A stretch of DNA of 64,000 nucleotides, taken from assembly GCA_026708055.1 (NCBI GenBank), contig JAPOVS010000040.1, positions 29,400 to 93,399 of the forward strand. The letters run 5' to 3'. Made by a program: the position numbers and the translations under genes. Position 1 is the stretch's first letter; each line of letters opens with the position of its first letter. The notes under the pieces were generated by a model. It did not search any database and was not told the DNA's origin. It worked only from the letters and a program-made list of their open reading frames with translations. Shown here piece by piece: positions 3,174 through 44,995 of the stretch. The DNA is from a bacterium. Lineage in GTDB: Bacteria > Actinomycetota > Acidimicrobiia > Acidimicrobiales > CATQHL01.

Positions 3174-4879
<1,706 letters not shown>

Positions 4880-4982
4880 TTACACGCGATGTGAGGCGTT
4901 GAAAAGGGGGGAGACGGGATTTGTCCACAGATTCCGCCCCGGGGTGCGGGGCGCCGCACGGCCGCGGCGGCGCCGCGGCCGG

Positions 4983-6359
4983 TCAGATCTCCTCGGCCCG
5001 GCGGAACTCCTCGCGGGCTGCGTTCGAGGCCGCCCGCAGCGCCGACTCCGGATCCAGCGAGCAGTGCCGCGCCAGTTCGACCACCTCGAAGAGCAACGAT
5101 CCGAGCCACCCCTCATCACGCCGCCCCGGCGGGACGTCGAGGGCGGCCCGCAGGCGCGCCCGCGCGGTGGTCTCGCTGCTGCGGCCGAGGCCGGCGGCTT
5201 CGGCCCGCTTCTGCACCTTGAGCGCACCAAGCAGCGCGGGCAGCGCCTCGGGGATGCCGTCCATCGCCGAGGCGCGCCCCTTCTCGACACGCTTGATCTG
5301 TTCCCACCCGGCGTCCAGCGATTCCTCGTCGCCGGCGGCGCCCGCCGCCGGGCCGAACACGTGAGGATGGCGCCGTCTCAGCTTGGCGTCCACCTGCCGC
5401 ACCACGTCGCCGATGGTGAACTGTCCCTGCTCGGCGGCCAGCGTGGCGTGAAAGAAGACATGGAAGAGCAGATCCCCGAGTTCCTCCTCGAGGTGCTCAT
5501 AGCCCTCGCCCGCTGCGGTGGCGCCGCCCGGCGCCGCCGGCTCCGGCAACCCGTCGATGGCCTCCAGCACCTCGTAGACCTCCTCGAGCAGGTGGCGGCG
5601 AAGGCTGCGGTGCGTCTGCCTGCGATCCCACGGGCACTCGGCACGCAGCGTCGCAACCAACTCGCCGAAGCGGACCAGTTCGGCTGCGGACACGTCGGCC
5701 ATCTCGGGGATGTACAGCGACGTGAGGTGGTCCACCGGCTCCCAGCGCGCCAGATCGCCGGCACGGACCTGCTCCACCCGCTCGGATTCCAGGCCCAGGT
5801 GGTGCAGGACCCAGACCACCGTCGAGGGTGCCGGCAGCGCCGGAGCGACCGCCGCCAGGGTCTCGGCGCTGTCGCACTGAGCCACCAGCAGCGGCCCGCG
5901 CTCGCCCGCCGCCTCGCCGGCGAACCGCTGGCCGTCGACGATCCGCACCCCGCTCGCCAGGGGATCGACCCCGAGCCGGGACCATGCCAGATCGGCGAAG
6001 GACAGCGCCGGGTGCACCTCGGCGTCGACGCGGCTGTCGCCGAGGAGCATCTGCACCGATCGCTCCGCCACAGCAGGCGAACCCGGCACGGCATACAGCA
6101 CCGTTCCGTGACGCCTCGCCGCCGCCACGAGGCGCTCGACGATGGCCTCGTACACCTGCTCGATGCGCTGCGCCGAACGGTAGAGGTCGTCACAACCCTT
6201 CGCCGGCGCCACGACCCCCGCAGAAGGGTGGCGGACGGTGCGGACGAAGCGCGCCGCCGGCGGCACCGCCTCGATGAGCGCTCGGGTGCCTTCGGTGACG
6301 AGGTCGGCCCCGGCCGGGCCGAGCCCGACGACGGTGACGCGCGGCGACTCGGAGTTCAT
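4983..6359 (-). CDS. mazG: MazG nucleoside triphosphate pyrophosphohydrolase with an N-terminal tetrapyrrole-methylase-like domain (YabN-type fusion)
   Basis: The N-terminus MNSESPRVTVVGLGPAGADLVT... is TP-methylase-like. The MazG core is LRAECPWDRRQTHRSLRRHLLEEVYEVLEAI...EEELGDLLFHV...RRHPHVFG. I trimmed the start from track ORF 4983..6692 to ATG 6359, which forms an ATGA overlap with the mfd stop. Confidence 0.85.
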   Translation of the reverse strand: MNSESPRVTVVGLGPAGADLVTEGTRALIEAVPPAARFVRTVRHPSAGVVAPAKGCDDLYRSAQRIEQVYEAIVERLVAAARRHGTVLYAVPGSPAVAERSVQMLLGDSRVDAEVHPALSFADLAWSRLGVDPLASGVRIVDGQRFAGEAAGERGPLLVAQCDSAETLAAVAPALPAPSTVVWVLHHLGLESERVEQVRAGDLARWEPVDHLTSLYIPEMADVSAAELVRFGELVATLRAECPWDRRQTHRSLRRHLLEEVYEVLEAIDGLPEPAAPGGATAAGEGYEHLEEELGDLLFHVFFHATLAAEQGQFTIGDVVRQVDAKLRRRHPHVFGPAAGAAGDEESLDAGWEQIKRVEKGRASAMDGIPEALPALLGALKVQKRAEAAGLGRSSETTARARLRAALDVPPGRRDEGWLGSLLFEVVELARHCSLDPESALRAASNAAREEFRRAEEI

Positions 6360-9300: not shown

Positions 9301-9835
9301 GTTGCTCCACCTGCACTCCCCGCCGGTACCCGGCGGCGGCGAGACTCTCGATCAGCTCGTCACGGTCGCAGCGGTCCCCGCGGCTCAGTCGTATCGGCTC
9401 GAAGTCCTCCGTCCCCGGTGCGAGCCGCTGCATGAGGGCCCGCACCGACGCCACGACCACTGCTGGCGTGGTCTCGGGCCGACGCATCCGCCAGATCGTG
9501 CGCAACCGCGTGCCCATGGCCACCGCGGCCGGGCTCACCTGCTCGAACGGCAGCGTCTCCCAGGCCGGAAGGGAAGCGACCGCGTCCGCTCCCAGCCAAC
9601 TCTGCAGGTCGGCGGCGAGATGCTCGGCCACCGCCTCGGTCACGGTGCAGACCACCAGGGGGCGCCGACCCGAGGCGCGGGCCAGCGCCGCCAGCGCCGC
9701 CGGCTGGGCCCGCTCGGGCACCGCCAGGGAGGCCTCCCGCCGGCCCAGGCAGGCGCCGATCGCCGGCGCCGCGGCGATCTCTGCGGCCAGAGGCGCCAGC
9801 CCCGGGCGCGCGCCGCCCGGCCCCTCAGCGGACAT
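6356..9835 (-). CDS. mfd: transcription-repair coupling factor
   Basis: 1159 aa. Helicase motifs are GDVGFGKTEVA, LLIVDEEQRFG and HGQM, and a C-terminal TRCF-type region is present. It sits in the conserved position next to pth. Confidence 0.95.
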   Translation of the reverse strand: MSAEGPGGARPGLAPLAAEIAAAPAIGACLGRREASLAVPERAQPAALAALARASGRRPLVVCTVTEAVAEHLAADLQSWLGADAVASLPAWETLPFEQVSPAAVAMGTRLRTIWRMRRPETTPAVVVASVRALMQRLAPGTEDFEPIRLSRGDRCDRDELIESLAAAGYRRGVQVEQRGEMAVRGSIVDVFGATAADPVRIDLWGDEIDRLCTFSVSGQRSGASLVATEIFGCRELRPTEAVRRRAAELVGEAPWGSRQWELLAEGAFFDGMEAWLGWLSSEQRSFADLIPAGGLVVLVERDRLWARAQDLLAEEAELARHLAAAWGVARDEQLPSAHVAAEDLLAGCEAPVWSLNSSPSSPGEPLVEALGWESPLGTGDGPVRQVASLLAEGYRVAVVADGEGSAQRLRRRLEDHGVALDAPSALPAGAGSAACSVTVGPLRVGCILPEVRLAVLAESDLTGRRRVHRRARPAGATPGAGAVEDLQVGGFVVHRTHGVACYRGMVTRAMDGVERDYLLLEYRGDARLYVPTDQLDTVRQYTGGDAPTLSRLGGADWQRAKSRVRAAVSEVAGELVELYRKRHATAGHAFGADGPWQAQMEAAFAYPETPDQISAIARVKEDMELAVPMDRLVCGDVGFGKTEVAVRAAFKAVADGRQVAVLVPTTLLAHQHHQTFSERYAGFPLRVEMLSRFLNPAATRGVLDGLRSGDVDVVIGTHRLLSGDVGFARLGLLIVDEEQRFGVTHKEAIKTLRHDVDVLTLTATPIPRTLEMSLTGIRDMTVLQTPPADRKPIGTYVGPYDERAVIEAIRRELLRDGQVFFVHNRVADIDRVAAHLRELVPGVRVAVAHGQMDEAALEQAVLDFWDRRYDVMVCTTIIESGIDMPTVNTLIVDRADLMGLAQLHQIRGRVGRAQMRAYAYLFTPPERSLTTEAYERLKVVAESTELGSGIRIAMRDLEIRGAGNLLGLGQSGHIAAVGYDLYCEMVTEAVAELAGEVPEPPAELNLEVPVDAHLPADYVPSESLRFAAYRRLAEATSAEAVADVRAEWLDRFGPLPAAAESLLGVARLRVLCVAAGVTDVSVRSAPGGGAEARITPLRLRESRRVRLERLWPSAAYDPSSGRLRVPLRSRSGAVEAITEVLERLADQPPPAAASPPAA

Positions 9836-9840
9836 TGCCC

Positions 9841-10464
9841 TCAGCGGACATTGAAGGTGTTCATGGCCTGCTCGACACCGCCGGTGGCGATGACCTCGGC
9901 GGCGTCGGCCGCCCTGCCGGCCGCGGCAGCCAAAGCGTCGCGGTCCGCCGAGGCGGGGCGGCTCAGCACGTAGCCGGCGCCCGCCGCAGCGCTCGGCGGC
10001 CGGCCGATGCCGATGCGGATGCGGACGAAGGAGGTGGCACGCAGGTGGTCCCGGATCGATCGCAGGCCCTTGTGACCGGCGAGCCCGCCGCCGGCCCGGA
10101 CCTGCACCCGCCCGGTCGGCAGGTCGAGTTCATCGTGGATGACCACCAGGCGCTGCAGGTCTTCGACGCCGAAGCGCCTCACGAGCTTCCCGACGGCCTC
10201 GCCGGAGACGTTCATGTAGGTCTGCGGGAACGCCAGCGCCACGCGCCGGCCCTCGATGCGCACCTCGTCGGTCAGCGCCGGGAGGCCCCGGCGGCGCCGC
10301 AGGTGACCGCCGTGGCGATCTGCGAGCTCCAACACCGCCGCCGCACCGGCGTTGTGGCGCGTACCGGCATAGCGCTCTCCGGGATTGCCGAGCCCCACGA
10401 CCAGGAGATCGGCGGGGGTGCCGGTCCGCTGTGCCCCAGCCGGCCGCCGCCGACGCAGGGACAT
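9841..10464 (-). CDS. pth: peptidyl-tRNA hydrolase
   Basis: Contains LLVVGLGNPGERYAGTRHNAG and GHKGLRSI motifs. Confidence 0.92.
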   Translation of the reverse strand: MSLRRRRPAGAQRTGTPADLLVVGLGNPGERYAGTRHNAGAAAVLELADRHGGHLRRRRGLPALTDEVRIEGRRVALAFPQTYMNVSGEAVGKLVRRFGVEDLQRLVVIHDELDLPTGRVQVRAGGGLAGHKGLRSIRDHLRATSFVRIRIGIGRPPSAAAGAGYVLSRPASADRDALAAAAGRAADAAEVIATGGVEQAMNTFNVR

Positions 10465-10472
10465 CGCCGACC

Positions 10473-11138
10473 TCAGTCGCTGTCGCCGGCGTCGTCCTCG
10501 GCGGCTTCCTCGCCGTCACCGTCGGCCTCGGCCTCCGCCTCGGCCTCGGCGGCTTCGGCCTCCGCCGCCGCCTCGAGGGCGCTCCGCGTGATGATCCCCG
10601 ACACCACCGGTGCCGACTCATCGACGAGCGAGGTCACGCCGGGGGGCAATTCGAGGTCCGCGACGGTCAGCGTGTCCCCGACGGTCAAGTCGGACACGTC
10701 GAGCACCAACTCGTTGGGAATCGAGCGCGGTTTGGCGAGGACGCGCAGCGTATCCAGCGACCGCTCGACGATGCCGTTGATGTCGAGTACCGCTGAAGCC
10801 TGGCCGGTCAGGTGGATCGGCACCTCCACGGCGACGTCGGAATCGGGCTCGACCCGCAGGAAATCCACGTGGGTCACGTCGCCGCGCAGCGGGTTGCGCT
10901 GCATCTCCTTCACCAACGCCATCTCGTGCTCGCCGCCGACATCCAGGTTCAGCACGACGTTCAGCCCGGCCTCGGTGGACAGGGCGCCGCGCAACTCGCG
11001 GTAGTCGACACTGACGGTGACGGCCTCCTTGCCGAGTCCGTACACCGTGGCGGGCACCTTGCCCTGCAGCCTCAAGCGGCGCGACGGCCCGCTGCCGGTG
11101 GCGCGGCCCAATTCGAGGGGGAGGACGACTTCCTGCAT
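10473..11138 (-). CDS. rplY: 50S ribosomal protein L25/general stress protein Ctc
   Basis: L25/Ctc N-terminal fold sequence (GKVPATVYG...VSVDYREL) and an acidic Ala/Glu/Asp tail. It follows the conserved prs-ctc-pth order. Confidence 0.9.
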   Translation of the reverse strand: MQEVVLPLELGRATGSGPSRRLRLQGKVPATVYGLGKEAVTVSVDYRELRGALSTEAGLNVVLNLDVGGEHEMALVKEMQRNPLRGDVTHVDFLRVEPDSDVAVEVPIHLTGQASAVLDINGIVERSLDTLRVLAKPRSIPNELVLDVSDLTVGDTLTVADLELPPGVTSLVDESAPVVSGIITRSALEAAAEAEAAEAEAEAEADGDGEEAAEDDAGDSD

Positions 11139-11212
11139 GGCCTTTCCGCGGAAGATTTCGGAGAATTGACCGGCGCGAGCCTACCTGGCCGCGCCGCCGA
11201 CCCGTCGCCTGC

Positions 11213-12202
11213 TCAGGACAGGTTGTTGCCGCCGAAGATCTCGCTCACCGAGGCGTCCTCGAAGACCGCCCTGACGGCGCTCGCGATGATCGGAGCCACC
11301 GAGACGACCTCCAGCGTGTCGATGCACTTCTCGGGCGGCAGCGGCAGCGTGTCGGTGATGATCACCTTGCCGATGACGGAGTTCTTCAGCCGGTCCACGG
11401 CCGGACCCGAGAACAGACCGTGCGTCGTGGCGGCGTAGACCTCCTCGGCGCCGCGCGCCGCCAGTTGCTCGGCGGCGGCCACGATGGTCCCGCCGGTGTC
11501 GATCATGTCGTCGATCAGCACGCAGACGCGCCCGGCCACCTCGCCCACGACCTCGCGTGCTTGCACCGCGCTCTTCTCTCCCCGGATGCGACTCTTGTGC
11601 ACGATCGCCAGGTCCGCCCCGAGAGCGATGGCATAGCGCTCGGCGACCTTCACCCGGCCCGCGTCCGGCGAGACCACGACCAGGTCCTCGCCCAGACCGG
11701 CGATCCGCTCACACAGCACCGGCATGGCGGTGAGGTGGTCCCAAGGGCCGTCGAAGAAACCCTGGATCTGCCCGGAGTGCAGGTCGACGCTGATGAGGCG
11801 GCCGGCTCCGGCGGCGGCCAGCAGGTTGGCCATGAGCTTGGCGGAGATCGGCTCGCGGCCTTCGGCCTTGCGGTCCTGGCGGGCGTAGGGGAAGAACGGG
11901 CAGACGGCCGTGACGCGTTTGGCCGAGGCCCGGCGAGCAGCGTCCACCATCACCAACTGCTCGATGACGGCGTCGTTGATCGAGCGCTCTTCGAGCGCGG
12001 CGTGCGATTGGATGATGAAGACGTCGGCACCGCGGATGGATTGCCCGAAGCGGCAGTGAATCTCACCGTTGGCGAAGTCCGACAGGTTCGTCTCGCACAG
12101 CTCGACGCCGAGGTTCGCGGCGATCTCCTCCGCCAGTTCGAGGTTTGCCCGCCCCGACATGACCTGCAGTTGCTTCGTGGTCACGAGTTGCACGCTGTTC
12201 AT
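11213..12202 (-). CDS. prs: ribose-phosphate pyrophosphokinase
   Basis: Contains KQLQVMSGRANLELAEEIA, SVDLHSGQIQGFFD and the VLIDDMIDTGGT PRPP loop. I trimmed the start to ATG 12202, which forms an ATGA overlap with the glmU-like stop. Confidence 0.93.
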   Translation of the reverse strand: MNSVQLVTTKQLQVMSGRANLELAEEIAANLGVELCETNLSDFANGEIHCRFGQSIRGADVFIIQSHAALEERSINDAVIEQLVMVDAARRASAKRVTAVCPFFPYARQDRKAEGREPISAKLMANLLAAAGAGRLISVDLHSGQIQGFFDGPWDHLTAMPVLCERIAGLGEDLVVVSPDAGRVKVAERYAIALGADLAIVHKSRIRGEKSAVQAREVVGEVAGRVCVLIDDMIDTGGTIVAAAEQLAARGAEEVYAATTHGLFSGPAVDRLKNSVIGKVIITDTLPLPPEKCIDTLEVVSVAPIIASAVRAVFEDASVSEIFGGNNLS

Positions 12203-20014: not shown

Positions 20015-20223
20015 CGTTCCAGTCTGCCGGGCCCCGACCCGAGAGCGGTTGCGCCGCTTGCCCGGGGTGCTCTCGAGCATCACCGATGTTCTGCTCCCCC
20101 ATACGCTCGTCCGGGCAGGACCGCGCCACGACCCCGCCCAACGCTGGCCGGCATCCGCCGGGTGCAGCGGATCCGCTCGCGTGTGTCGGTTCCGTGTCAC
20201 AGCCAGGTGATAGAACTACACGC

Positions 20224-21165
20224 ATGCAATCCACGGATGCCGACACCGGCACAACCGCCGCTGCCTCCCGATCCGCTCCCGCAGCGATGCCCGCCGGTGG
20301 CGACGCCTCCGGCGAGGGCGAGACCGGCACCCTCGTACACATCCCGGTACGCCCCAAGCACCTGTCCCCTTCCAGCGCCTCCATGTTCCGGCAATGCCCG
20401 CAGCGCTGGAAGTTCCGCTACGTCGACAAGCTGCCCGACCCTCCCGGTGAGGCGGCACTGGCGGGCACGTTCGCCCACCGCGTGCTCGAGGAACTGCTGG
20501 GGCTCGACGCCACCGAGCGCACGCTGGAGAGCGCCCGTTCGCTCGCCGGCCAGGTATGGACCGAGATGGAGTCGGACAAGGACTTCGCGGCGCTCGAACT
20601 CGACGCCGACGGCGTCCGCAACTTCAAGTGGACCGCTTGGCGGGCGATCGAGGGTCTCTGGGACCTCGAGGACCCCACAACCGTGGACATCGTCGCCACC
20701 GAGACCGAGGTGTCGGTGGAGATCGGGGGGGTCCCGTTCATCGGCTACATCGACAGGGTCGAGGAGGGCGCCGACGGGCTCGTGGTCAGCGACTACAAGT
20801 CCGGGCGGGCTCCGGGCCGGAAGTTCTCCGAGAGCCGCCTCGAGCAGGTGCTGCTCTATGCCGCGGCCCTCACGGAGATCCACGGCGCCCTGCCGGCCCG
20901 GGCACGGCTCATGTACCTGGGCCAGCGGATCGACGAGGCCACCGTCACCGCCGAGACGATCGCCGAGGTGACCCGCCGCCTGGCCGAGACCTGGGAGGAG
21001 CTGCTCGAACGCTCGGCGACCGGCGACTTCCCGCCACAACCCGGACCGCTGTGCGGCTGGTGCGCCTTCGTGCGGCACTGCCCCGAGGGGCTCGCCGAGG
21101 TCGAGCGCCGGCACCTCGCCGGCGCCCTCCGCCCCGACGCCCCCGCCCTCGCCGAGGCCGTCTAG
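20224..21165 (+). CDS. PD-(D/E)XK nuclease, Cas4/AddB-like with an Fe-S cysteine set
   Basis: Contains SASMFRQCPQRWKFRYV, GYIDRVEEGADGLVVSDYKSG (a D..D/ExK-type core) and C-terminal CGWCAFVRHC. Start is ATG 20224, in frame within track ORF 20086..21165. Confidence 0.8.
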   Translation: MQSTDADTGTTAAASRSAPAAMPAGGDASGEGETGTLVHIPVRPKHLSPSSASMFRQCPQRWKFRYVDKLPDPPGEAALAGTFAHRVLEELLGLDATERTLESARSLAGQVWTEMESDKDFAALELDADGVRNFKWTAWRAIEGLWDLEDPTTVDIVATETEVSVEIGGVPFIGYIDRVEEGADGLVVSDYKSGRAPGRKFSESRLEQVLLYAAALTEIHGALPARARLMYLGQRIDEATVTAETIAEVTRRLAETWEELLERSATGDFPPQPGPLCGWCAFVRHCPEGLAEVERRHLAGALRPDAPALAEAV

Positions 21166-21189: not shown

Positions 21190-24096
21190 ATGGCCCGCCA
21201 GACCGAAGGGTCGATTAATCACGACCTCGCCGCCGCCCTACGCGAACTGCACCCTGCATGGAACGAGCAGACCGTTCTTGCCGAGAGCACAGACGTCCTG
21301 ACTGAGGGTGTCGGCCGAAAGCCCGACATTGTCATTACCAACGTTGCGCATCTCGGCGGTGTGATCCTGGAAACGGAGATTGAGCCGGCGCGGACCGTTG
21401 AGGAGGATGCCCTAGCGCGGCTCGGCGACACGTTCCTCGCCGACGGGTCGCCTGTCGAGCAGGCGGTCGCTGTCAGGATCCCGGTTGCGGCACGCGCGCC
21501 CGGAACCCCGCTCGACACGCTTAGGTATGCCTACAGGGTCTGTACCAACGGCACCCAGACTCTGTCATGGTTCCCGGACAACGGCTGGATCGAAGGCTCG
21601 ATTGCGGACTTAGCCGGCTTTGTCGAGACGGTCGCGGTGTCGCCCCGCCAGCTGGCGCAAGGCGTCAACACGCTCGAGAGCGGGGTGCGGCAGGCGTCGA
21701 CCATCATCAGACGAGGAATGGAGGACACCTATCAGGCGGGCCTCGATGAGATGGCGGCCATTGTGCACCAGCGAGATGGTGAACAGACCACAAGGATGGC
21801 TGCCGCAATCATTGCCAACGCTCTCACAGTCCATTCGGCGATCGCAGCTGTCAACCCGGAGATCCGATCGCTGACCGACCCCTCGATGCGCGGCTACGGC
21901 AACATCCTCCTGCAATCAGAGGTGTCGGCGTGTTGGCAAGCGATCCTCGAAGTCAACTACTGGCCGATTTTTGACGTGGCTCGTCGAGTTCTCGTCGCCC
22001 TCGACGAGGCGATCGCAGGACAGGCGTTGTCACGGTTGAGCGACACCGCAAGCAGGCTCCGGGGGCTCGGTGCAACAACCATCGGCGATATGGCCGGGCA
22101 GATGTTCGGACAGCTCATTGCCGACAGGAAGTTTCTCGCCACGTTCTACACGCGTCCGTCCTCTGCAACGCTGCTCGCCGAACTTGCGGTGGCACGCCTC
22201 AGCACAAATTGGCACGATCCGGAGGCAGTAGGTGATCTCCGAATCGCCGACCTCGCGTGTGGCACTGGAGCGCTGCTTTCGGCCGTCTACCGGCGCATCG
22301 TGTCCCGCGTCCGTCGAGGCGGCCTGGACGACAGGAACCTGCATGCAGGATTCATGGAGCGTGGCATGGTCGGCTGCGACATCATGCCAGCGGCGACACA
22401 CCTGACTGCCGCACAATTGACGGCCGCGCATCCCACGGTCACCTTCGGGAATACTCGTATCCACACGATGCCATACGGCGAGCACGACCCCGGGGGCGGG
22501 ACACGCATCTTCATCGGCTCACTCGAATTGCTCGACGACACAGCTGCGCCCAGCCTCTTGGGCACCGGCGCAACGACGGTTACCGGAACCGGAGAGATTG
22601 CCGATTCGGGTGATCACCAACTCGATCTACCGAACGGCAGCATCGACCTGGTGATCATGAATCCACCCTTCACGCGACCCACGAACCACGAGATCGCCGA
22701 CGTGCCAGTGCCATCGTTCGCCGGCTTTGAGACGTCCACGCTGGAACAGAGGGAGATGTCGAAGAGGCTGGGACGACTGAGGCGAAAACTTGACCACGAG
22801 CCAGCCGGTCACGGGAATGCCGGACTCGCCTCCAACTTCCTCGACTTGGCCCACAGCAAGGTCAAGGCTGGAGGGGAGATCGCCCTCGTCCTACCCTCGA
22901 CGGTCTCGTCTGGTGACGCGTGGGCACCCTCACGACGTCTGCTTGGCAAGTACTACCGAGACACCATCATCGTGACGATCTCTGGAGCCAGTTCAGGCTC
23001 CAGCGCGTTCTCAGCTGACACCGATATGGCCGAAGCACTCATCGTCGCGACCCGACTCGCTGCGAATGAGGCCGTCGAAGCGCCGGCACCGGCCGTGCTG
23101 TGGGTCAATCTGGCAAGACGGCCGGACAGCATCCCGGAAGCCGTCGAGATCGCGCGAGCCATTCGGAACATCGACCGAATGAGGCCGACCGGACGGCTCC
23201 GAGTCGGCAATGACATCGTCGGATGTTTCGCCCGCGCGTCAGTTGACGACGGCGGGTGCGCCCAGGTCGCCGAGACTGACGTGATCGAGACCGCCCTTGC
23301 CTTAGGGCGCCAACAGCTTCAACTTGCTGGCTTGGCTCAGCTTCCGATACCCGTCACCACCCTGAGCCAACTCGGTACCCCGGGTCCGTATCACCTTGAC
23401 ATTCGAAGCGGCGGCACGACGGCACGTGGTCCGTTCGAGATCGAGAAGCTCCCGCCGAGTACAACTCCTTCCTACCCGGCGCTATGGCGGCACCACGCCG
23501 CCAGGGAACGCGGGCTCGTGGTCGCGCCCGACAGCCAGGGTCGGATCCTCCCGGGCAGGCGTGACAAAGCACTCGAACTCTGGGAGACGAGCACGCGCCT
23601 TCATCTGAGTAGCGACTTCAGGTTGAACTCGCAGAGCCTCGGGGCCTGCCTCACGCGAAGGCGAACAATCGGTGGCCGGGCTTGGCCTTCGTATCTACTC
23701 GACGATTGTTCCCACGAGAAGGCTGCGGTGCTTTGGTTCGCCACCACCCTCGGGCTGATCGCCCATTGGTGGGTCGGTTCCCGTCAGCAGCAGGGACGGT
23801 CGATTCTCTCGATCGGCAGGCTCGGCGAACTCCGCGTGATCGACTGCCGCGATCTCAGCAGCAAGCAGTTCGACGCGCTGGACGCCGCCTTCGACCAATT
23901 CGCCAATAGCGACCTGCTGCCTGCGAACGAGGCTTACCGTGACCCTGTGCGTGCCGCACTCGACAAGGCAGTGCTCTGCGAGGCACTCGGACTGCCGGAG
24001 GAGATCCTCGCGCCTCTCAGCACCCTCCGCGAGCAGTGGTGCGCCGAGCCCACAGTCCACGGGGGCAAAGCGACGGCACCCTCGGCCCACGATTGA
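21190..24096 (+). CDS. 968-aa gamma-class N6-adenine DNA methyltransferase fusion (Type IIG/IIL-like architecture)
   Basis: The SAM motif I is DLACGTGALLSAV and the catalytic motif IV is VIMNPPFTRP. The N-terminal ~80 aa contain KPDIVITNVAHLGGVILETEIEP, a PD...ExK-like pattern with E in place of K. A long C-terminal region has TRD-like size. Confidence 0.8.
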   Translation: MARQTEGSINHDLAAALRELHPAWNEQTVLAESTDVLTEGVGRKPDIVITNVAHLGGVILETEIEPARTVEEDALARLGDTFLADGSPVEQAVAVRIPVAARAPGTPLDTLRYAYRVCTNGTQTLSWFPDNGWIEGSIADLAGFVETVAVSPRQLAQGVNTLESGVRQASTIIRRGMEDTYQAGLDEMAAIVHQRDGEQTTRMAAAIIANALTVHSAIAAVNPEIRSLTDPSMRGYGNILLQSEVSACWQAILEVNYWPIFDVARRVLVALDEAIAGQALSRLSDTASRLRGLGATTIGDMAGQMFGQLIADRKFLATFYTRPSSATLLAELAVARLSTNWHDPEAVGDLRIADLACGTGALLSAVYRRIVSRVRRGGLDDRNLHAGFMERGMVGCDIMPAATHLTAAQLTAAHPTVTFGNTRIHTMPYGEHDPGGGTRIFIGSLELLDDTAAPSLLGTGATTVTGTGEIADSGDHQLDLPNGSIDLVIMNPPFTRPTNHEIADVPVPSFAGFETSTLEQREMSKRLGRLRRKLDHEPAGHGNAGLASNFLDLAHSKVKAGGEIALVLPSTVSSGDAWAPSRRLLGKYYRDTIIVTISGASSGSSAFSADTDMAEALIVATRLAANEAVEAPAPAVLWVNLARRPDSIPEAVEIARAIRNIDRMRPTGRLRVGNDIVGCFARASVDDGGCAQVAETDVIETALALGRQQLQLAGLAQLPIPVTTLSQLGTPGPYHLDIRSGGTTARGPFEIEKLPPSTTPSYPALWRHHAARERGLVVAPDSQGRILPGRRDKALELWETSTRLHLSSDFRLNSQSLGACLTRRRTIGGRAWPSYLLDDCSHEKAAVLWFATTLGLIAHWWVGSRQQQGRSILSIGRLGELRVIDCRDLSSKQFDALDAAFDQFANSDLLPANEAYRDPVRAALDKAVLCEALGLPEEILAPLSTLREQWCAEPTVHGGKATAPSAHD

Positions 24097-24108: not shown

Positions 24109-24447
24109 TCAGGCTTCGCCCAGCAGGTCAACGATCTCCGACGGGGTGCTGACTCGCCAGCCAGTCGTCGGCCCTTCTTCGTAGTCCGCGCAGCCCCCGG
24201 TCCAAGACCTCTCCGGGTATATCTCGACAAGCGTGTACCTTTCGTCAAGACATGGCCCCTCTGCCGTCACCACCCAGATGCACTGGCTGTCAGCCGACCA
24301 GACCACCTGGCAGCCGTGCAGCGGATGATCGGGATCGGCGAAGCGCCGGGCGACCTCCTCTGCGATCCCAGCCGCCGACGTCTCGATGTCGATTGCGACC
24401 AGAGCGCGGGGTCGGGTCGCTTCTTCCGGTGATGTGATCGGTTCCAT
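24109..24447 (-). CDS. hypothetical protein (112 aa)
   Basis: ORF with GC3-rich codons reading MEPITSPEEATRPRALVAIDIETSAAG.... It lies downstream of the 1462-aa gene on the same strand, and its stop is 12 nt from the convergent methyltransferase stop. I recognise no domain. Confidence 0.45.
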   Translation of the reverse strand: MEPITSPEEATRPRALVAIDIETSAAGIAEEVARRFADPDHPLHGCQVVWSADSQCIWVVTAEGPCLDERYTLVEIYPERSWTGGCADYEEGPTTGWRVSTPSEIVDLLGEA

Positions 24448-24731
24448 GCGCGACTCTTCCAGTCGATGGTCTTGCCAGCAGGGGGAAGCTCGGAGGATCA
24501 CCGTCAGGAATACGAAGTCGGAACGAACGTGCGCGTTCTAAACCGAGGGAAGTCGCGACCGCCTGTGAGGAGGCGCTCTCCCCGCACGGTAGAAGCTTCT
24601 CGACGGACTTCAACCGGGTAGGCCTCGGTGGCGCTGCTCTGGCTGAGCTCGGGGGCGACGGTGTTGCCGCGTCGGCGGCTGCCCGCTCGCGGACACCGCC
24701 CGGCGACCCTCTGGGCGACGCTGCCGTCAGA

Positions 24732-27700
24732 TCACAACGGCAACCCGCGGCGGACCGCCTCTGCCGAGCGGTCGTGCAGTGCAGCGTCCGACTCATAGCT
24801 GGCAGCCAGTCCTTCGAAGATGGCCGCCGTGCGCGGCCAACTGCTGAGATTGCGGCTCTTCTCGCGGTACGTCGCGACCAGTTGGCGCTCTTGGTCGCCT
24901 CCGTCGGTCGGCGAGCGGTTCGTCGCACCCCGCTGGTTGCGGAGAGCCACATGGAGGCCGAGGGCGACGTCGTCACTTCGTAGGCGCTCGATCAACTCGC
25001 GTACCGGGAGGCTCGGCCATTCGCCGCCGGGGTCCGGGGGTGACACCGCCAGTGCCTTGCCGATCATCTGGTCGCCGATGACCGCTCGGTCGACTTCTGC
25101 GAGGCGGTCCCGGGCGCGGTCGACCCAGTTGTTGAGTTTCTCTTCGTCGAGTTTGCCATCCTCGTCGGCGCCGGGCGAGACCTGCGAGGAGGGCCACGAG
25201 CGGAGCAGGCTGTCGGCGTTGAGTGCCCGCCGGCGGTCGGCGTCGCTCAATTCGGGCCGAACTTCGGGCGCTGCATGAGCGGGCTTGAAGGCGAGTTCGA
25301 CGAGCGAGACGAAGAAATCGGGGTTCTGTGCCAACTCTCGATACAGGTTCGGTGCCTTGAAACGGGAGTCATGCCGCAACGCCCGATAGTAACGCCACTC
25401 GATCGCCGCGACGCGTCCGGGACCGAGATGCTCTCGATGGCGATCCAGGGCGTCCATCAGGAGGGTCAAGTAGTCGCGGTCCAGGGGGCTAGTCCGTGTC
25501 TGCCAGTCTTCCTGTTCGACCCGTTCCTCGAGACAGGCGGCCGCCTCCTCTGCGAATTGCGGCTCGGATCCGAGGGTGTGCAAATGGGGTGCCAGAAATG
25601 ACGCAGCTGAGCCGGCGCGTCCGGCTCCTCGCAGACACTGGGACACTTCAAGAACTTCGGTGAGACTGGGAGGCGACCCTACGTACCAGTAGCCGGCGCG
25701 CCCCCAATACTCAGCAGCGACATCGCCGCCCAACTTGTTGACCTCCCGCCAGGGTCGCTGCGTGGCTGGGATCGCCCTGAACAGGTCAGCCGTCACCTGC
25801 GCCGTCAAGAATTGATGTTCGATTAGCCAGCGAATGCCGTCCCACCGGTGGTCGCTGAACCGGCTGCAGAAGTAGCCCAGCGCCATCTGGGTCACCGCTT
25901 CAGGCGCGGCGTTCATCGCTGAGAGCATGTCGCTATCGAAATCCGTTCCGATTGTTGCCAGCGCAAGCCCGACTTCATATGGCTGGGCCACTGCGGCAGC
26001 AAACTCAAGCAACTCGCCAATGCTGTGGAGATCGAGGATCGCCTCGATCGCCTTGACCCGCCGTGCTGCCAACGCCTCCGTGTACGCCTCATGGTCCAGC
26101 GGCGATATCCCGTCGATGTGTCCGAACCCGCCGCCGAACAGCAGGCCATACGCGTTCAGCGGTGTTGACGGACGCAGGGGCTCGAGCAGCGCCTCGAACT
26201 CCACGAGTTCGATCTCGGGGAGAGCCCAACTCGTGCCGTTGCAGTCGCGGTGAAGCGAGATCATTCGACGCAACGCAGACCAGACGGCAGATCTGATTTC
26301 CTCACCGGGGCCTGAGTCGGCTACGGCAGCCAACGATGCGTGCAGGGATTTGCGAGCGGCGGCAGCGAGGTCGCCGACACGTTCGACGAGCACGGCAAGG
26401 CGTTCTGGCTCTGTCCCTGCATCGTCGACGAGCCGGGACGCGACCGCGGAGACGGTTCGGTCATACTCGATCTCGGTAACGACTGGCCTCGAGTCCATCC
26501 AGGGGCGGAAACGCGGGCCGGGACTGTCGAACACCGTGTCCGTCGCGCTGGGCAGCATCGACAGCATGAGATCCCAGGCCGCAGCACCGTGGCGACCTCG
26601 AAGCATGTCGAGTACCGCTAACCGTTGTTCACTGTCCGCGGACGTATGGGGACTCCAGGGGCACATGATCTCTGCGAGGCTCTTGCCGGGTCGGTTCGAC
26701 CAGCCGCCGCCAGGGTCGGACTCAGCGAGTTCCGCGAGAAGGTCGGTGGTCGGCTTGATGTAGTCGTTGGACCACGCCAGGAGCTCCAACGCTTCGAGGA
26801 CACGCAAGTGCGGCGAATCCGTCGGGAACCCGAAGTCGTCGTTTTGGCGATCGGCGAACAGCACGCTCGCGAACCGGTGAGGTTCGGCCAGGCACGACCG
26901 CAGACCCGCCAGCACCGGGGCCGGGGCAGCCTCCGCCAGCAGGGGCAGAATGTCAGCCACTGACACCCAGGTCGTCGGATCTGGGTCGTCGCTCGCTGCA
27001 CGCAGGATCCGCGCCACGATGTGTTCGGCGGCGTTGGCGGAAGACCCTACATCGCCTCGCAGCCGCGGCGGGACGGTTCCAAGTAGCGCAAGCGTCGTGG
27101 CGACACCGCTCCGGAGTTGCGGCGAGTATCGGGCCCTGACACCTTCGAACTGCGCTGCCAAGCGCTCGGTCTGGCTCAATCCGTAGAGCGGATCGGGTTC
27201 GGTCAAAACCTCGGCTGCAAGGTCACCGAGCAACTCGAGGTCCTCTCGCGAGATCTGATCGTCGATGAGAGCCCACGCGTCGGCCGGTGCGACCACATGC
27301 CATCGCTCATCGGTCAGCAACATCGGCGGCTCGCGCTCACTGGCGACCGTGTGCAGCGCCTCGACGACATCTTCGTCCGAGCAACCGACGAAACGCTCGA
27401 CGACGCTGCGGTCACCATCGCTGGTCTGGTTCCAGCTGTTGAGCATGATGCTCCTACGCAGGATCTTGTCAACCGCACCGACCGCCCAAGCCGGGCGATG
27501 CAGGTCCGGTTCGGTGGCCAACCTTCGGCGGAGTGTCAAGAGGCTCATCCGCGCCAAGGCGCCGAATTCACCAGCGGTGAAGAAGTCCTCTCCGGCAGTT
27601 CTCATCTGATCCGCCACAGCGGCGGCGTCCACGGCATCCAGCACGATGTCAGCCCGTGAACTTCCAGGTATGGGAACGATCAGGCGGTGAGTGCTGTCCG

Positions 27701-29120
27701 GCGGAAGACACGGCGCAAAATCGGCCGACGGAACAACCACCGTCATCCCGGGGACGCTTCTGGACTGTCGCCCTGAGGATTCGCGTGTCCCCGCGGCCAG
27801 CAGACGCTGCGCCGTTTCCTTGTCGTCAACGTAGAGGAAGTCGCCCCGCGGCCATTCGCCTGGCGGCCCGGAGACGAGCGCTGCCGTCACGAAGGCGAGG
27901 ATCTCCTCGCTATGCATATCGCCGCCGATCGTGATGATTCCGCCGCGTTGCTCGCTGCAGAGGGAACGCAGTCGGTCGGCCTGATCGCCACGGCCTGCGA
28001 GCACCACCTCCACACCGAGAGGGATCCTGGTCGTAGCGAGCCAGCGATGCCACCAAGCCGAGACCAGTTCGAGCCCGCGCGCCGGCTCGCCCAACTGCTC
28101 ACGCAGCCAGACGGTCGTGACCGGAGCGCACTCCAGCCAGGACACGATGTCGTCCACCTTCAACGCCAGAACAGACCGGTAATCGCCGGCCTGCTCCTTC
28201 TCGTCGGCGAACGAGCGCGCCTTTGTCCAAGGCGCGCAGACCACTGCCACGTAGGCCTCGTCGGCGCGCTCGGCGGGTGAGGTCTGCCTTAGGCGCTTCC
28301 AGTAGTCTTCGCATGCCTTCCCATGGGATCCAGTCTGCTGCGTGGACAGTTCCCATCTCGAACGACCCGCCGGCACGAACCGATTCCCGTCAGTGCACCT
28401 GACAACGCCGTCCCAGCCCGCCGTTCCGACATCTGTTCCCGCGGGCATGTCGATCCACTCCGCCGACGGCTCGGTCTCTGCGATCAGGCTGCGGATCAGC
28501 CTCGGTAGCTCCCGCTCGGCTTCAGCGGTTCTGGCCCACTGAAGAAGCCGGTCGCGGTTGACGCGCATCGACTCGGGCACCGTTGCCATGAGGTGTCTTC
28601 GAGATATCAGCCCGTCTGCCAGACTCCGCGCCAAGTCGGCCTCCTCCCCGCTCACGAGAGCCAGCAGCCCAGTGCCGCGCAGGCGATTCGCGATCCGACC
28701 AAGATCGCGCACTCTCGCCGCGACAGAGGGCAGTCGCGTGACGAACCCCCGAGTCGTCTCCCCGGCCTCGCCGGCCGCACGGAGTTCCGCCAAGTCCGCC
28801 TTGGCGTAAGCGAACGCCTCCCTCAACTCCGAGCTTGCAACGGGGGCCAACACATCGCCAAGCACGGCATCACCCCGACTCTCGACCTCTGCGGCCACCT
28901 GCCGAAGCCAACTGCGCCTCAGAGCATCATCCGGCGCGCTGTCAAAAGCCCTCAGTCGACTGCCCGCTGTTGCCAGAATCCGCTCTCGATCAGCAGACAC
29001 GCGGTAAAGGCGAAGCCCCTCCGCCCAGACCAACTCGAGTTCATCCGCGTCTGCTGCGCAGCCGAGGCGGTCGAGAATCGGATCGAGACGCTCGGGTCGC
29101 ACGGAATCGCGGGCACTCAT
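24732..29120 (-). CDS. 1462-aa hypothetical protein, largely alpha-helical-looking, with no recognisable catalytic motif
   Basis: An uninterrupted 4.4 kb ORF with coding-like third-position GC. There is an ATGA overlap with the upstream 152-aa gene. I found no Walker A, HxH, DEAD or GHKL motifs on reading. Confidence 0.8.
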   Translation of the reverse strand: MSARDSVRPERLDPILDRLGCAADADELELVWAEGLRLYRVSADRERILATAGSRLRAFDSAPDDALRRSWLRQVAAEVESRGDAVLGDVLAPVASSELREAFAYAKADLAELRAAGEAGETTRGFVTRLPSVAARVRDLGRIANRLRGTGLLALVSGEEADLARSLADGLISRRHLMATVPESMRVNRDRLLQWARTAEAERELPRLIRSLIAETEPSAEWIDMPAGTDVGTAGWDGVVRCTDGNRFVPAGRSRWELSTQQTGSHGKACEDYWKRLRQTSPAERADEAYVAVVCAPWTKARSFADEKEQAGDYRSVLALKVDDIVSWLECAPVTTVWLREQLGEPARGLELVSAWWHRWLATTRIPLGVEVVLAGRGDQADRLRSLCSEQRGGIITIGGDMHSEEILAFVTAALVSGPPGEWPRGDFLYVDDKETAQRLLAAGTRESSGRQSRSVPGMTVVVPSADFAPCLPPDSTHRLIVPIPGSSRADIVLDAVDAAAVADQMRTAGEDFFTAGEFGALARMSLLTLRRRLATEPDLHRPAWAVGAVDKILRRSIMLNSWNQTSDGDRSVVERFVGCSDEDVVEALHTVASEREPPMLLTDERWHVVAPADAWALIDDQISREDLELLGDLAAEVLTEPDPLYGLSQTERLAAQFEGVRARYSPQLRSGVATTLALLGTVPPRLRGDVGSSANAAEHIVARILRAASDDPDPTTWVSVADILPLLAEAAPAPVLAGLRSCLAEPHRFASVLFADRQNDDFGFPTDSPHLRVLEALELLAWSNDYIKPTTDLLAELAESDPGGGWSNRPGKSLAEIMCPWSPHTSADSEQRLAVLDMLRGRHGAAAWDLMLSMLPSATDTVFDSPGPRFRPWMDSRPVVTEIEYDRTVSAVASRLVDDAGTEPERLAVLVERVGDLAAAARKSLHASLAAVADSGPGEEIRSAVWSALRRMISLHRDCNGTSWALPEIELVEFEALLEPLRPSTPLNAYGLLFGGGFGHIDGISPLDHEAYTEALAARRVKAIEAILDLHSIGELLEFAAAVAQPYEVGLALATIGTDFDSDMLSAMNAAPEAVTQMALGYFCSRFSDHRWDGIRWLIEHQFLTAQVTADLFRAIPATQRPWREVNKLGGDVAAEYWGRAGYWYVGSPPSLTEVLEVSQCLRGAGRAGSAASFLAPHLHTLGSEPQFAEEAAACLEERVEQEDWQTRTSPLDRDYLTLLMDALDRHREHLGPGRVAAIEWRYYRALRHDSRFKAPNLYRELAQNPDFFVSLVELAFKPAHAAPEVRPELSDADRRRALNADSLLRSWPSSQVSPGADEDGKLDEEKLNNWVDRARDRLAEVDRAVIGDQMIGKALAVSPPDPGGEWPSLPVRELIERLRSDDVALGLHVALRNQRGATNRSPTDGGDQERQLVATYREKSRNLSSWPRTAAIFEGLAASYESDAALHDRSAEAVRRGLPL

Positions 29121-29575
29121 GGCAAACTCCGGCCACGAGCTTGAACGCTGCCCGGCAACACTCGCAGCCCGCGCGCCTCGAGCGCCTGCCGCGCAACCAC
29201 GAGACTCTCTGGGCCCGGGCGGTAATGGCCACTCCTGTTATTGACGAGAATCACCAACTGCTCACTTCCATCTCTCACGACCTCGATCTCTCCTGCTGCG
29301 TACACAGGACCCCCACGCGATAGCACCGCGTGCGAGATTTGCTCACCCATCAGATGACGGCGACACACCAGAGGCCGATCTCCGACAACGACGTAGATCA
29401 TCGGTTCTCCGAGTTCAACCAGGGTCTCGAACTCTGTGCTCGGCACCTCGACGGTAACGGCGCCGGCGCGCTCCGCCGCAGCCATCTCCTGAAGCAGATG
29501 TTCGGGATAGCGGTTGTCGTAGGTACGAGGCACGTTCCTCCAGATCCGAGCCGGACGCTCATGGCTGCCGACCAT
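29117..29575 (-). CDS. hypothetical protein (152 aa), first gene of the island-1 operon
   Basis: Reads MVGSHERPARIWRNVPRTYDNRYPEHLL...LVILVNNRSGHYRPGPESLVVARQALEARG. It is translationally coupled (ATGA) to the 1462-aa gene. Confidence 0.65.
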   Translation of the reverse strand: MVGSHERPARIWRNVPRTYDNRYPEHLLQEMAAAERAGAVTVEVPSTEFETLVELGEPMIYVVVGDRPLVCRRHLMGEQISHAVLSRGGPVYAAGEIEVVRDGSEQLVILVNNRSGHYRPGPESLVVARQALEARGLRVLPGSVQARGRSLP

Positions 29576-40959: not shown

Positions 40960-41688
40960 TTACGCCTGCTCGCCCAGCCGGGCCCGCAGGGCGGCCACCT
41001 CGGCCTCAGATGCGCGACGGGCGGCCTCAGCGGCCTCGGCACGATCCTCAGCGGCCGTGGCACGCGCCACGGCAGCGTCCCGTTGGTGGCGGGTCTCGTC
41101 TGGATCGGCTAGCCAGCAGCCGCTTCTGGAGTCCCGAAAGCGCAGACGGTGGTCCTCGGCGTGAAGATCCAAGCCGAGGACCCGGCTGTGGCCGCGCAGA
41201 CGGCCGCCGTCGTCGGTGCCCACCGCTATCGGCGCCCAGGCGCCGCCCTCCCGGCGGTCGCCCTGCAGGGCGGGCGTGTAGAACTCGCCGCCGGTGGGGT
41301 CGAGGCGCCAGTACTCGCTGACGCCCATCTCCAGATACGCCGCGGGCTTGTCGTCCAAGTCGTTCCGGTAGGTGCGCTCCGAGGCGACCTCCAGCACGAA
41401 CGCGGGCGGCGCGCCCACCTCCCAGAGCCGGTAGCTGGCCGCCTCCTGGATGCGGCGGGGCTCCACGCCGAAGCACACGAACACGTCGGGCGCGACCACC
41501 CTGCGGGCCGGCAGCGGGCGGTAATAGACATTGAGGTCCTGGCCGACGAAGCAGCCCCGGAGCCCCGCGAAGTGCCCGCGCAGCGCGCCGTAGCACAGGA
41601 AGCGCACCAGCGAATGCAGGTCCGAGTCAGGCACGCTGGGAGTGGCGGGGTACGCCACGTCGGGATCCAAGTCGGCCAGCACGCTCAC
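40960..41688 (-). CDS. Uma2 family (DUF820) endonuclease
   Basis: Contains ...VVAPDVFVCFGV...APPAFVLEVASERTYRNDLDDKPAAYLEMGVSEYWRLDP..., a PD-(D/E)XK Uma2 core. A coiled C-terminal tail follows. Confidence 0.85.
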   Translation of the reverse strand: MSVLADLDPDVAYPATPSVPDSDLHSLVRFLCYGALRGHFAGLRGCFVGQDLNVYYRPLPARRVVAPDVFVCFGVEPRRIQEAASYRLWEVGAPPAFVLEVASERTYRNDLDDKPAAYLEMGVSEYWRLDPTGGEFYTPALQGDRREGGAWAPIAVGTDDGGRLRGHSRVLGLDLHAEDHRLRFRDSRSGCWLADPDETRHQRDAAVARATAAEDRAEAAEAARRASEAEVAALRARLGEQA

Positions 41689-43110: not shown

Positions 43111-44995
43111 ATGGCGAACAACCCTGATCCCCGAGCGGCCGCGAGGCGACCCCTCGCCGCGCGGCGCACAAGCACCCCCCCCCCCCGCAGGCCGGCGACG
43201 CCGCGCTAGGGCGCTCCTAGCCGCCGCGGCGCTGCTGGCGGTCCTGGCCGGCGCGCTCGCCTCGACGCCCGCCGCCGCCCAAGAGCCCGGCGGCGAGGTC
43301 CGCATCGTCGCCCGCAAACACAACGACGGCAGAATCGAATTCGCCCTCCAACAACGCCACGGCGACACCTGGGGAGACCGACAACTCCCCCGCTCCCGCT
43401 ACTTCCCCACCACCGCTCCAACCGGACGCTGGCTCGCCAGCACACCCGTAGACGCCGCCGGCGGCGAGGTGCGCATCGTCGCCCGCAAACACAACGACGG
43501 CAGAATCGAATTCGCCCTCCAACAACGCCACGGCGACACCTGGGGAGACCGACAACTCCCCCGCAGCCGCTTCTTCCCCACCACCGCCATCACCGGACGC
43601 TGGCTCACCAGCACACCCATCACCGTCCAAGCCGTCCAAGCACCGGCAACCACTGCCCTCAGCGGTTCCCTGCAATACCTGACCATCACCGGGAACGCGG
43701 CGAGCGGGTTCGCGTGCGCCCTGCGCACCGACGGAACCATCGCCTGCAGCGGCGGCAGGAACAAGTTCAACGAGACCGACGCACCCGACGGCACCTACAC
43801 TGCCATCGCAGCCGGCGACACTCACGCCTGCGCGATCGCCACCGACGGCACCACGACTTGCTGGGGCAACAATTCCGCGGGCCTGACCGACGTTCCGCGA
43901 GATCATCTATTCGAAAGCATTACCGCCGGCTCCGACCACACGTGCGGACTAGATCCTCCCGAGGAAGGGGCACCCGAATCCGCACCCGATGGCGATGTCT
44001 ATCTCGGTTACCATGTCGGTACAGGCGAGTGCTGGGGCGCCAGGCGGCTGCCTGGCGGATCCAGAGTGGGCATCACCGCCATCGCCGCCGGTTACGTGCA
44101 TACCTGCGCGCTCGCCACCGACGGCACCATCGACTGCTCGGGCAGGTGGAGCGAGAGCGACGGCACCTACACCGCCATCGCCGCCGGGGAGGGCCACACC
44201 TGCGCCATCGCCACCGACGGCACCATCGACTGCTGGGGAGACTGGGGAAGCTGGAGATATGTCGATTCCGGCCAGAGCGACGCGCCCGACGGCACCTACA
44301 CCGCCATCGCCGCCGGCGGCTGGCACACCTGCGCCATCGCCACCGACGGCACCATCGACTGCTGGGGCTCCAACGTAAGCGGCCAGAGCGACGCGCCCGA
44401 CGGCACCTACACCGCCATCGCCGCCGGCTCCCGTCACACCTGCGCCATCGCCACCGACGGCACCACCGCCTGCTGGGGCGTCTGGCCCGTAGAACTCGAC
44501 GATCACTACACCGCGATCGCGACCAGTGGCCAACACATCTGCGCCATCGCCACCGACGGCACCATCGACTGCTGGGGAGATAACTCATTCGGCCAGAGAG
44601 ACGCGCCCGACGGCACCTACACGGCCATCGCCGCCGGGGGGATCCACAGCTGCGCGATCCGCACCGACCGCACCATCGCCTGCTGGGGCGGCAGAACCGA
44701 TCGGCGGGGAGAACCCACAGGTCCGACCGACGCGCCCGACGGCACCTACACCGCTGTAGCGGCCATGCGCGGTCACACCTGCGCCATCGCCACCGACAGC
44801 ACCATGGTCTGCTGGGGCATAAAGAGCGACCCCCTTCCCGGCGAGCCAGAGCCAGTCGTCGCGCCCGACGGGCAGTTCACCGCCTTCACCGGCGATCACG
44901 AAGCAAACGATGCAACCTGCGGGATACGCACCGACGGCTCGACCGCGTGTCCAGATTGGTTAGTGTCCCGCGACGGTCTGGCAACTGGCCATTAG
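43111..44995 (+). CDS. RCC1-repeat (beta-propeller) secreted protein; the reading frame is broken at a C12 tract (phase-off state, pseudogene or sequencing error)
   Basis: SD AAGGAG plus ATG 43111 opens a 32-codon ORF that stops at TAG 43207-43209. The signal peptide (RRRRARALLAAAALLAVLAGALA), two 57-aa modules and at least 10 repeats of type DAPDGTYTAIAAGxxHTCAIATDGTIxCWG continue in the +1 frame to 44995. The first canonical in-frame start in that frame is only GTG 43469. Confidence 0.7.
43175..43186. repeat. homopolymeric C12 tract
   Basis: Read directly. Its position is cross-checked against track ORFs on both sides (42849..43175 and 43206..43445). Confidence 0.9.
43289..43630 (+). repeat. 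171-bp tandem duplication (2 copies) encoding a 57-aa module
   Basis: GGEVRIVARKHNDGRIEFALQQRHGDTWGDRQLPRSR(Y/F)FPTTA.TGRWL.STP occurs at 43289-43459 and again at 43460-43630, nearly identical at the DNA level. Confidence 0.85.

Follow-up and report, generated by a model that had tools for sequence, protein, structure and literature searches.

A small gene coupled to a probable, very distant Avs8-type receptor-nuclease without NTPase motifs in Acidimicrobiia

Avs proteins are bacterial counterparts of nucleotide-binding leucine-rich-repeat (NLR) immune receptors, and a switch driven by nucleoside triphosphates (NTP) is treated as central to them. In this study, we analysed a stretch of 64,000 nucleotides from an Acidimicrobiales genome (assembly GCA_026708055.1, contig JAPOVS010000040.1, positions 29,400 to 93,399), hereafter called the window, in which a small open reading frame (ORF; 29117-29575, reverse strand, 152 residues counted from the ATG at 29575) precedes a large gene of 1462 residues (24732-29120, reverse strand). 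The closest described system is PD-lambda-4, which is now named Avs8 (10.1101/2025.07.02.662641; 10.64898/2026.01.04.697583). Its large protein, Avs8A, combines an Mrr nuclease with the STAND (signal transduction ATPases with numerous domains) class of protein; after binding to HK97-fold capsid proteins, it degrades DNA (bioRxiv 10.1101/2025.07.02.662641). The E. coli system can do without its second protein, Avs8B, whose function is not known (bioRxiv 10.1101/2025.07.02.662641). KpAvs8 is naturally without nucleotide-binding residues (bioRxiv 10.64898/2026.01.04.697583).

We interpret the 1462-residue protein, with a probability of roughly 0.65, as a very distant antiviral receptor-nuclease of the Avs8 (PD-lambda-4) type that has no NTPase motifs and that in this lineage is equipped with an N-terminal extension and a small partner. 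A preliminary description of the window, made from the sequence alone, had seen no recognisable domains in these proteins. This statement has to be replaced, because profile-profile comparison and structural modelling show an architecture of the Avs8/PD-lambda-4 type. The same description had proposed a novel defence or toxin module that included a 112-residue ORF and a methyltransferase (MTase) next to the pair. A defence module composed of a giant sensor and a small partner is supported by our analysis, but the 112-residue ORF and the MTase, which accompany the pair in the closest syntenic genomes only, are not parts of it.

Homology to Avs8A

An alignment of 44 sequences from the family of the large protein was compared by hhalign with an alignment of eight Avs8A sequences, which was composed of the E. 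coli locus encoding Avs8B WP_000443183.1 (its cloning sequence is given in a supplement) and seven diverse plasmid homologues. The two profiles were matched with a probability of 98.4% (E = 4e-15) over 940 colinear columns running from the nuclease into the sensor, and controls with reversed sequences gave E-values of 0.46-0.56. The identity in this alignment is approximately 16%; the homology is remote. Segments of the protein were also compared with Avs8A separately. The first half of the sensor gave an E-value of 2e-10 (probability 96.8%), the nuclease domain alone 1.2e-4 (probability 55%), and the second half of the sensor 6e-3. The PADLOC model PD-Lambda-4_A (1,283 positions) has weak colinear matches in four of seven distant relatives, with E-values of 3e-5 to 8e-3.

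The domain order is the same as that of Avs8A (E. coli ECOR07 WP_000963924.1; a homologue is encoded at L046:8212-12063), in which an Mrr-like nuclease, a module at the STAND position, a winged helix, and a long repeat sensor follow one another. In the window protein, the Mrr-like PD-(D/E)xK nuclease domain was assigned to residues ~197-330 (28131-28532, reverse strand) on the basis of model topology, conservation, hhalign, and Foldseek. The next module, with alpha/beta, helical, and winged-helix parts (residues ~366-640; 27201-28025, reverse strand), occupies the position of the STAND NTPase and has no Walker A/B motifs. The C-terminal region (residues ~660-1462; 24735-27143, reverse strand) is homologous to the Avs8A sensor in the hhalign alignment. 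An additional N-terminal extension of 190 residues (28551-29120, reverse strand), which is all-helical in the AlphaFold2 (AF2) model, is specific to the subfamily of the window protein and is not present in Avs8A; without it, the family and Avs8A are nearly equal in length (~1,260 and 1,283 residues, respectively). The large protein thus shares with Avs8A the full-length homology, the Mrr-type PD-(D/E)xK domain, and the C-terminal repeat sensor, whereas a match to the curated PADLOC model, the canonical lysine of beta3, the Walker A/B motifs, and an Avs8B partner gene are missing. Avs8 and the window pair are both two-gene operons with a small protein of unknown function. However, the partner in our loci is located upstream with a 4-nucleotide overlap and has 94-164 residues as called, whereas Avs8B is encoded downstream, has 248 residues, and is unrelated (probability 0.2% in the hhalign comparison with the small-protein profile).

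Residues 1-700 were modelled by AF2 from an alignment of 96 sequences, and the model is confident, with a pLDDT value (predicted score in the local distance difference test) of 87. When this model was compared with the PDB by Foldseek, Avs4 bound to a phage portal protein was the top match (8dgf_B, E = 9e-3), followed by Apaf-1 and CED-4; AAA+ proteins and the restriction endonuclease EcoT38I (probability 0.69) were found lower down. Avs1-4 (AVAST), Apaf-1, and CED-4 provide the best structural matches for this part (Foldseek E-values of 0.009-0.08), and the tripartite plan of an effector, a switch, and a repeat sensor is shared with them. However, these proteins need an intact P-loop NTPase, and they have no similarity to the window protein at the sequence level. 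Scans with Pfam, PADLOC, and NCBIfam assigned no family to the large protein or to the product of the neighbouring 112-residue ORF, and a sequence-profile search of the PDB with the large protein gave matches at chance level only.

The likeness to Avs8 could be due to a shared sensor domain only. The central module would then not be derived from a STAND protein, and the activation logic would be different, as in Dsr1, which has an Avs7 sensor and no STAND module. The first half of the sensor contributes most of the hhalign signal, and the central NTPase-like segment has no significant similarity to Avs8A on its own (hhalign E = 0.07). None of the family members has Walker motifs, and unrelated systems that share a sensor have been described (bioRxiv 10.64898/2026.01.04.697583). 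We consider this explanation rather improbable. Colinear alignment extends from the nuclease past the P-loop position and into the sensor, the lengths of the proteins are nearly identical, and Foldseek independently placed Avs4, Apaf-1, and CED-4 first for residues 1-700.

Nuclease domain and central module

The sequence strings quoted in the preliminary description, WIDMPAGTDVGTAGWDGVV...WELSTQQ in the large protein and ...NNRSGHYRPG in the small protein, are present in the translations. The former belongs to a D...E-x-S patch that had been compared, with reserve, to PD-(D/E)xK nucleases, and this comparison is borne out by the AF2 model and by the hhalign register. In the model, residues ~197-330 adopt an alpha-beta-beta-beta-alpha-beta topology; beta2 has D237 at its start, beta3 contains E257, and K268 is part of the following helix. 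In the hhalign register, D237 is placed on the aspartate of the Mrr motif of Avs8A, and E257 is placed on its Q-x-K. As modelled, the patch is a PD-(D/E)xK core.

The residues of this core are strongly conserved among 126 aligned relatives, which are ~27-54% identical to the window protein: D237 is found in 125 of them, K268 in 124, and both E257 and D272 in all. The canonical catalytic (D/E/Q)-x-K of beta3 is not present, and the window protein reads E257-L-S259. Position 259, where Avs8A has the motif lysine, is occupied by S, G, or T in 125 relatives and by A in one. In the helix after beta3, K268, D272, and R276 are near-invariant. The nuclease motif is therefore D...E-x-S/G with a helix lysine, in contrast to D...Q-x-K in Avs8A. 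The conservation of D237, E257, K268, and D272 argues for a functional active site. The typical member of the family has ~1,260 residues, begins directly at the nuclease domain, and in most cases has no small partner. Because most members are without a partner and nonetheless show little or no variation at the four nuclease residues, the effector function most likely resides in the large protein, in its nuclease domain. The earlier picture of a small effector on a giant scaffold is not supported by this distribution.

The AF2 model has an alpha/beta domain, a helical bundle, and a winged helix in residues ~366-640. According to the hhalign register, the segment TIGGDMHSEE is opposite the Walker A motif of Avs8A (GLSGVGKTR), and VVVPS is opposite its Walker B motif (LVLDN). 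The Walker A pattern GxxxxGK[ST] was found at the P-loop position in none of the 126 relatives. Two of them (P0301 and P0349) contain GK[ST] strings, which are outside the P-loop position and were not accepted as Walker A. Judged by these sequences, the whole family is a pseudo-NTPase branch. KpAvs8, a natural variant of Avs8, is likewise without NTP-binding residues; the Walker A/B motifs are missing from single members of Avs8 and family-wide here.

By analogy with Avs8A, the C-terminal repeat region would bind a conserved phage protein, and the ligand-bound receptors would assemble, presumably as oligomers. The Mrr-like nuclease would then cut DNA, and the infection would be stopped (abortive infection). 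The central module is probably a descendant of a STAND NTPase, and activation without NTP would be expected from the family-wide loss of Walker A/B.

In a word-indexed search, 159 relatives of the large protein were scored. They are 45-99% identical to it, nearly all of them have ~1,460 residues, and all are annotated as hypothetical. A HMMER search with residues 190-1389, which was exhaustive, found 5,698 representatives of 50%-identity clusters at E <= 1e-3, a count whose weak end may take in classical Avs8 relatives, and 2,377 at E <= 1e-30. Thousands of such clusters would follow the Avs8 plan, and the Walker motifs are missing in all of the aligned relatives (126/126). The family may therefore serve as a natural test of nucleotide-free activation in Avs-type receptors. 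It also suggests a probable function for a widespread hypothetical protein, which is mis-annotated as a helix-turn-helix (HTH) regulator in some records.

Other branches of the family have add-ons at the same N-terminal position as the extension: HTH_3 in 16 of 23 cases, HTH_17/MerR in six, and a LexA-type domain in one. The add-ons of the relatives P0245-P0383 are nearly all HTH DNA-binding domains and belong to at least three types (Xre, MerR/HTH_17, and LexA). This variety implies that fusions at one N-terminal position occurred repeatedly and independently, and it fits a regulatory role for whatever attaches there. Family members are annotated as transcriptional regulators in RefSeq because of these domains.

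A plasmid of Rhizobium gallicum (NZ_CP017104.1; locus L055) encodes a 1354-residue HTH-fused pseudo-NTPase member (3841-7905), annotated as a helix-turn-helix transcriptional regulator, directly upstream of a 1165-residue protein of the true Avs8A family (8304-11801). The latter has kept a Walker A motif (GASGLGKS), aligns to Avs8A only from about column 114, and has no full nuclease domain. The two genes look like a paired receptor, with a nuclease without NTPase beside an NTPase without nuclease. Similar arrangements are found in NZ_CP022669.1 and NZ_CP006879.1.

The small partner and the N-terminal extension

The coordinates, overlap, and gaps given in the preliminary description are correct, and only the start of the small gene is revised. 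Direct reading of the sequence shows that the stop codon of the small gene overlaps the start codon of the large gene (ATGA, 29117-29120) and that GGAG is located 6 nucleotides ahead of the large-gene ATG. Together they form a signal for translational coupling (29117-29133, reverse strand). The true start of the small gene is probably the GTG at 29533, with a product of 138 rather than 152 residues, because the homologues begin at the position of V15 and GGAGGA is located 3 nucleotides before this GTG.

The conserved core of the small protein comprises residues 59-152. In an alignment of 26 sequences, R73, H82, E96, N113, S115, G116, H117, and P120 are invariant, and Y118 is nearly so. The AF2 model is confident (pLDDT 84; predicted TM-score, pTM, 0.80) and has three N-terminal helices followed by a core of beta-beta-(short helix)-beta-beta-loop-helix. 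Foldseek found no fold match for this model in the PDB, the best E-value being 0.03 (PPK1) with TM-scores below 0.35. Scans with Pfam, PADLOC, NCBIfam, and PHROGs gave no family, and the sequence-profile matches in the PDB were at chance level. Pfam DUF5988 was matched by 2 of the 26 members with an E-value of 0.08, which was judged to be noise. A resemblance to barnase and RNase Sa had been suggested for the C-terminal end. However, no such chain was present among the PDB profile matches (E <= 10) or the 50 best Foldseek matches in the PDB, and the same was true for RNase T1. The sole significant structural neighbours are two unnamed viral predicted structures in BFVD, G8DGH9 (351 residues, E = 1e-5, 23% identity in 96 columns) and E5EQ39 (166 residues, E = 2e-4). 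The predicted fold of the small protein is thus without a PDB counterpart.

The small gene and the extension go together. We collected 35 genome loci, mostly from metagenome-assembled genomes of Acidimicrobiia, many of which are named as sponge symbionts (for example, Ca. Poriferisodalis). With few exceptions, a profile hidden Markov model of the small protein detected the small gene directly upstream of the large gene in these loci, and the 4-nucleotide overlap was found in every inspected locus with called gene coordinates. Every locus with the extension has the small gene, except for a contig end and decayed copies; the pair is genuine and conserved. In contrast, the small gene is absent from all six loci without the extension (L015, L035-L038, and L044). 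Upstream ORFs of two partner-less loci (L036 and L015) were considered as partners and proved to be unrelated to the small protein. For the small protein, the word-indexed search scored 168 relatives, each of them a short stand-alone protein, and the small domain was not found fused within any protein of the large family (all E > 0.1).

The extension and the partner also diverge together. In comparisons of the window with its closest relatives, identities amount to 83-94% for the body of the large protein, only 61-65% for the extension, and ~55% for the partner. A relative with an 84%-identical extension, on one contig of 9.4 kb, has an 84%-identical partner. We infer from this co-occurrence and co-divergence a binding of the small protein to the extension, its proposed docking site. 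In the Acidimicrobiia subfamily, the small protein, translated in a coupled manner from the same message, would thus bind the 190-residue extension and gate or assist the nuclease. This branch would offer, with a co-inherited small protein and a docking domain, a two-component handle on nucleotide-free activation.

Some copies of the pair are duplicated or decayed. One genome (OZ244832.1, Ca. Aldehydirespirator; L011 and L039) has two full copies approximately 500 kb apart. The small gene is frameshifted or truncated in L005, L023, L028, and L041, and the large gene is split or truncated in L034, L038, and L042.

Two other roles can be considered for the small protein. As a protein of new fold, it may make up, together with the extension, a replacement control module. 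This module would be a protein safety catch, or it would be a second catalytic effector, set free by the sensor once a phage is recognised. We put this idea forward only tentatively; if true, the gating of an Avs-type nuclease would here be NTP-free and of an undescribed kind. The second possibility, which we regard as unlikely, is that the effector proper is the small protein, as an enzyme or toxin with a new fold, and that the large protein is a sensor or scaffold that releases or activates it and contains a dead nuclease-like domain. The invariant polar residues, which form a compact set (R73, H82, E96, N113, S115, and H117), the confident model without a PDB match, the translational coupling, and the Ser/Gly at position 259 in place of the canonical lysine are in line with such a role. 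However, most of the family, including the six fetched loci without the extension, is partner-less, D237, E257, K268, and D272 are almost invariant, and fusions of the small domain to family members were not found. In addition, Avs8B can be dispensed with in E. coli (bioRxiv 10.1101/2025.07.02.662641); it is not, however, a relative of the small protein.

Several observations weigh against the Avs8-type interpretation of the pair, in addition to the central segment that has no significant match of its own. The window protein matches neither the PADLOC model PD-Lambda-4_A (no hit at E <= 1) nor any other Avs model. All Foldseek E-values for residues 1-700 are above 0.001, and the TM-scores are low. 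The replacement of the motif lysine by Ser/Gly means that nuclease activity would hang on K268 from the next helix. In a mirror-tree comparison of distance matrices, the small protein co-varies only weakly with the extension (r = 0.30; partial correlation 0.24 versus -0.03).

Genomic neighbourhood

The pair is located in a low-GC island of the window (21.2-29.6 kb) amid housekeeping genes. The GC content is 64-66% in the island and ~72% in its surroundings, and the GC content at third codon positions (GC3) is 0.67-0.75 versus 0.85-0.95. One flank contains the genes for MetRS, TatD, DUF192, and a PDDEXK_1 nuclease, and the other those for Fpg, an AIR-synthase-like protein, MFS, and DegV. Rfam and repeat scans of 19.5-30.5 kb detected no RNA family and no flanking repeats of the mobile-element type, and promoter and terminator scans were uninformative. 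Because of the deviating GC and GC3 of the island and the numbers of relatives (159 for the large and 168 for the small protein), the ORFs, their overlap, and the conserved pair are not a product of chance.

Related loci are situated in defence islands. Their neighbours include retron/DRT-type reverse transcriptases, SIR2, AAA_21-RloB, SMC-like ATPases, Macro, CBASS (SMODS/SAVED), toxin-antitoxin pairs, Cas3, and ADP-ribosylglycohydrolases. In 13 of ~37 loci, a DUF1156 gene (Hma methylase) is found just upstream, and in 13 of ~37 an SNF2/NOV_C gene (Hma helicase) is found downstream, with DUF499 beyond. Location inside Hma has been published as a predictor of defence function (bioRxiv 10.1101/2024.01.29.577857). 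The pair may be comparable with the Hma-embedded candidates (HEC, Payne et al. 2024 preprint), in that its place in approximately one third of the loci is among DUF1156, SNF2/NOV_C, and DUF499 ATPase genes with other known defence cargo. However, it matches no model of PADLOC 2.0, which is said to contain also the preprint's untested candidates, and the window pair itself is not embedded in Hma but is flanked by Fpg and an unrelated MTase.

This MTase-like protein of 968 residues (21190-24096, forward strand) converges on the 112-residue ORF, and 12 nucleotides separate their stop codons at 24096 and 24109. The ORF (24109-24501, reverse strand) encodes 130 residues from a GTG or 112 residues from the ATG at 24447, and the gap to the large gene is accordingly 230 or 284 nucleotides. 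Among the loci fetched, the 968-residue MTase and the 112-residue ORF recur only in the closest syntenic genomes, two of which are distinct (L005/L009, one record that was fetched twice, and L010). Because these relatives share the whole chromosomal neighbourhood, the linkage reflects synteny and not membership in the system.

The presence of MTases also bears on the idea that the pair is the restriction arm of a system resembling restriction-modification. In the window, the pair faces a convergent MTase-like gene, an N6_Mtase gene adjoins a partner-less relative, and DUF1156 methylases are located upstream in about a third of the loci. However, three unrelated MTase families are involved, the one in the window is confined to the closest syntenic genomes, the DUF1156 genes belong to Hma, a known host of embedded cargo, and many loci have no MTase nearby. 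The homology moreover favours an Avs protein that senses proteins, not a reader of DNA modification, and this role is highly improbable.

The 968-residue protein has the amino-MTase motifs DLACGTG and NPPF and a PD...E-x-E-like patch near its N-terminus. It is weakly similar to MADS MAD2, type II/IIG MTases, and PglX/BrxX (best E = 2e-8). It may be a single-chain restriction-modification enzyme of a type IIG/IIL-like kind and, within the island, a second defence gene. Two tandem copies (970 and 994 residues) are present in L005. Neither the MTase nor the 112-residue protein has a significant match among the PDB sequences. The ORF of 112 or 130 residues has island-like codon usage (GC3 0.73-0.74) and is conserved only with the 968-residue MTase (L005 and L010); its association may be with the MTase and not with the pair. 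Upstream of the MTase, a PDDEXK_1/Cas4-like gene (20086-21165, forward strand) has host-like GC3.

Elsewhere in the window, a 242-residue ORF (40960-41688, reverse strand) resembles by eye a putative restriction endonuclease of the Uma2/DUF820 type. A 508-residue protein with RCC1-like repeats (DGTYTAIAAGxxHTCAIATDGTIDCWG) is encoded at 43469-44995 on the forward strand, in a stretch with a strong GC skew of -0.17 and an AT skew of +0.20.

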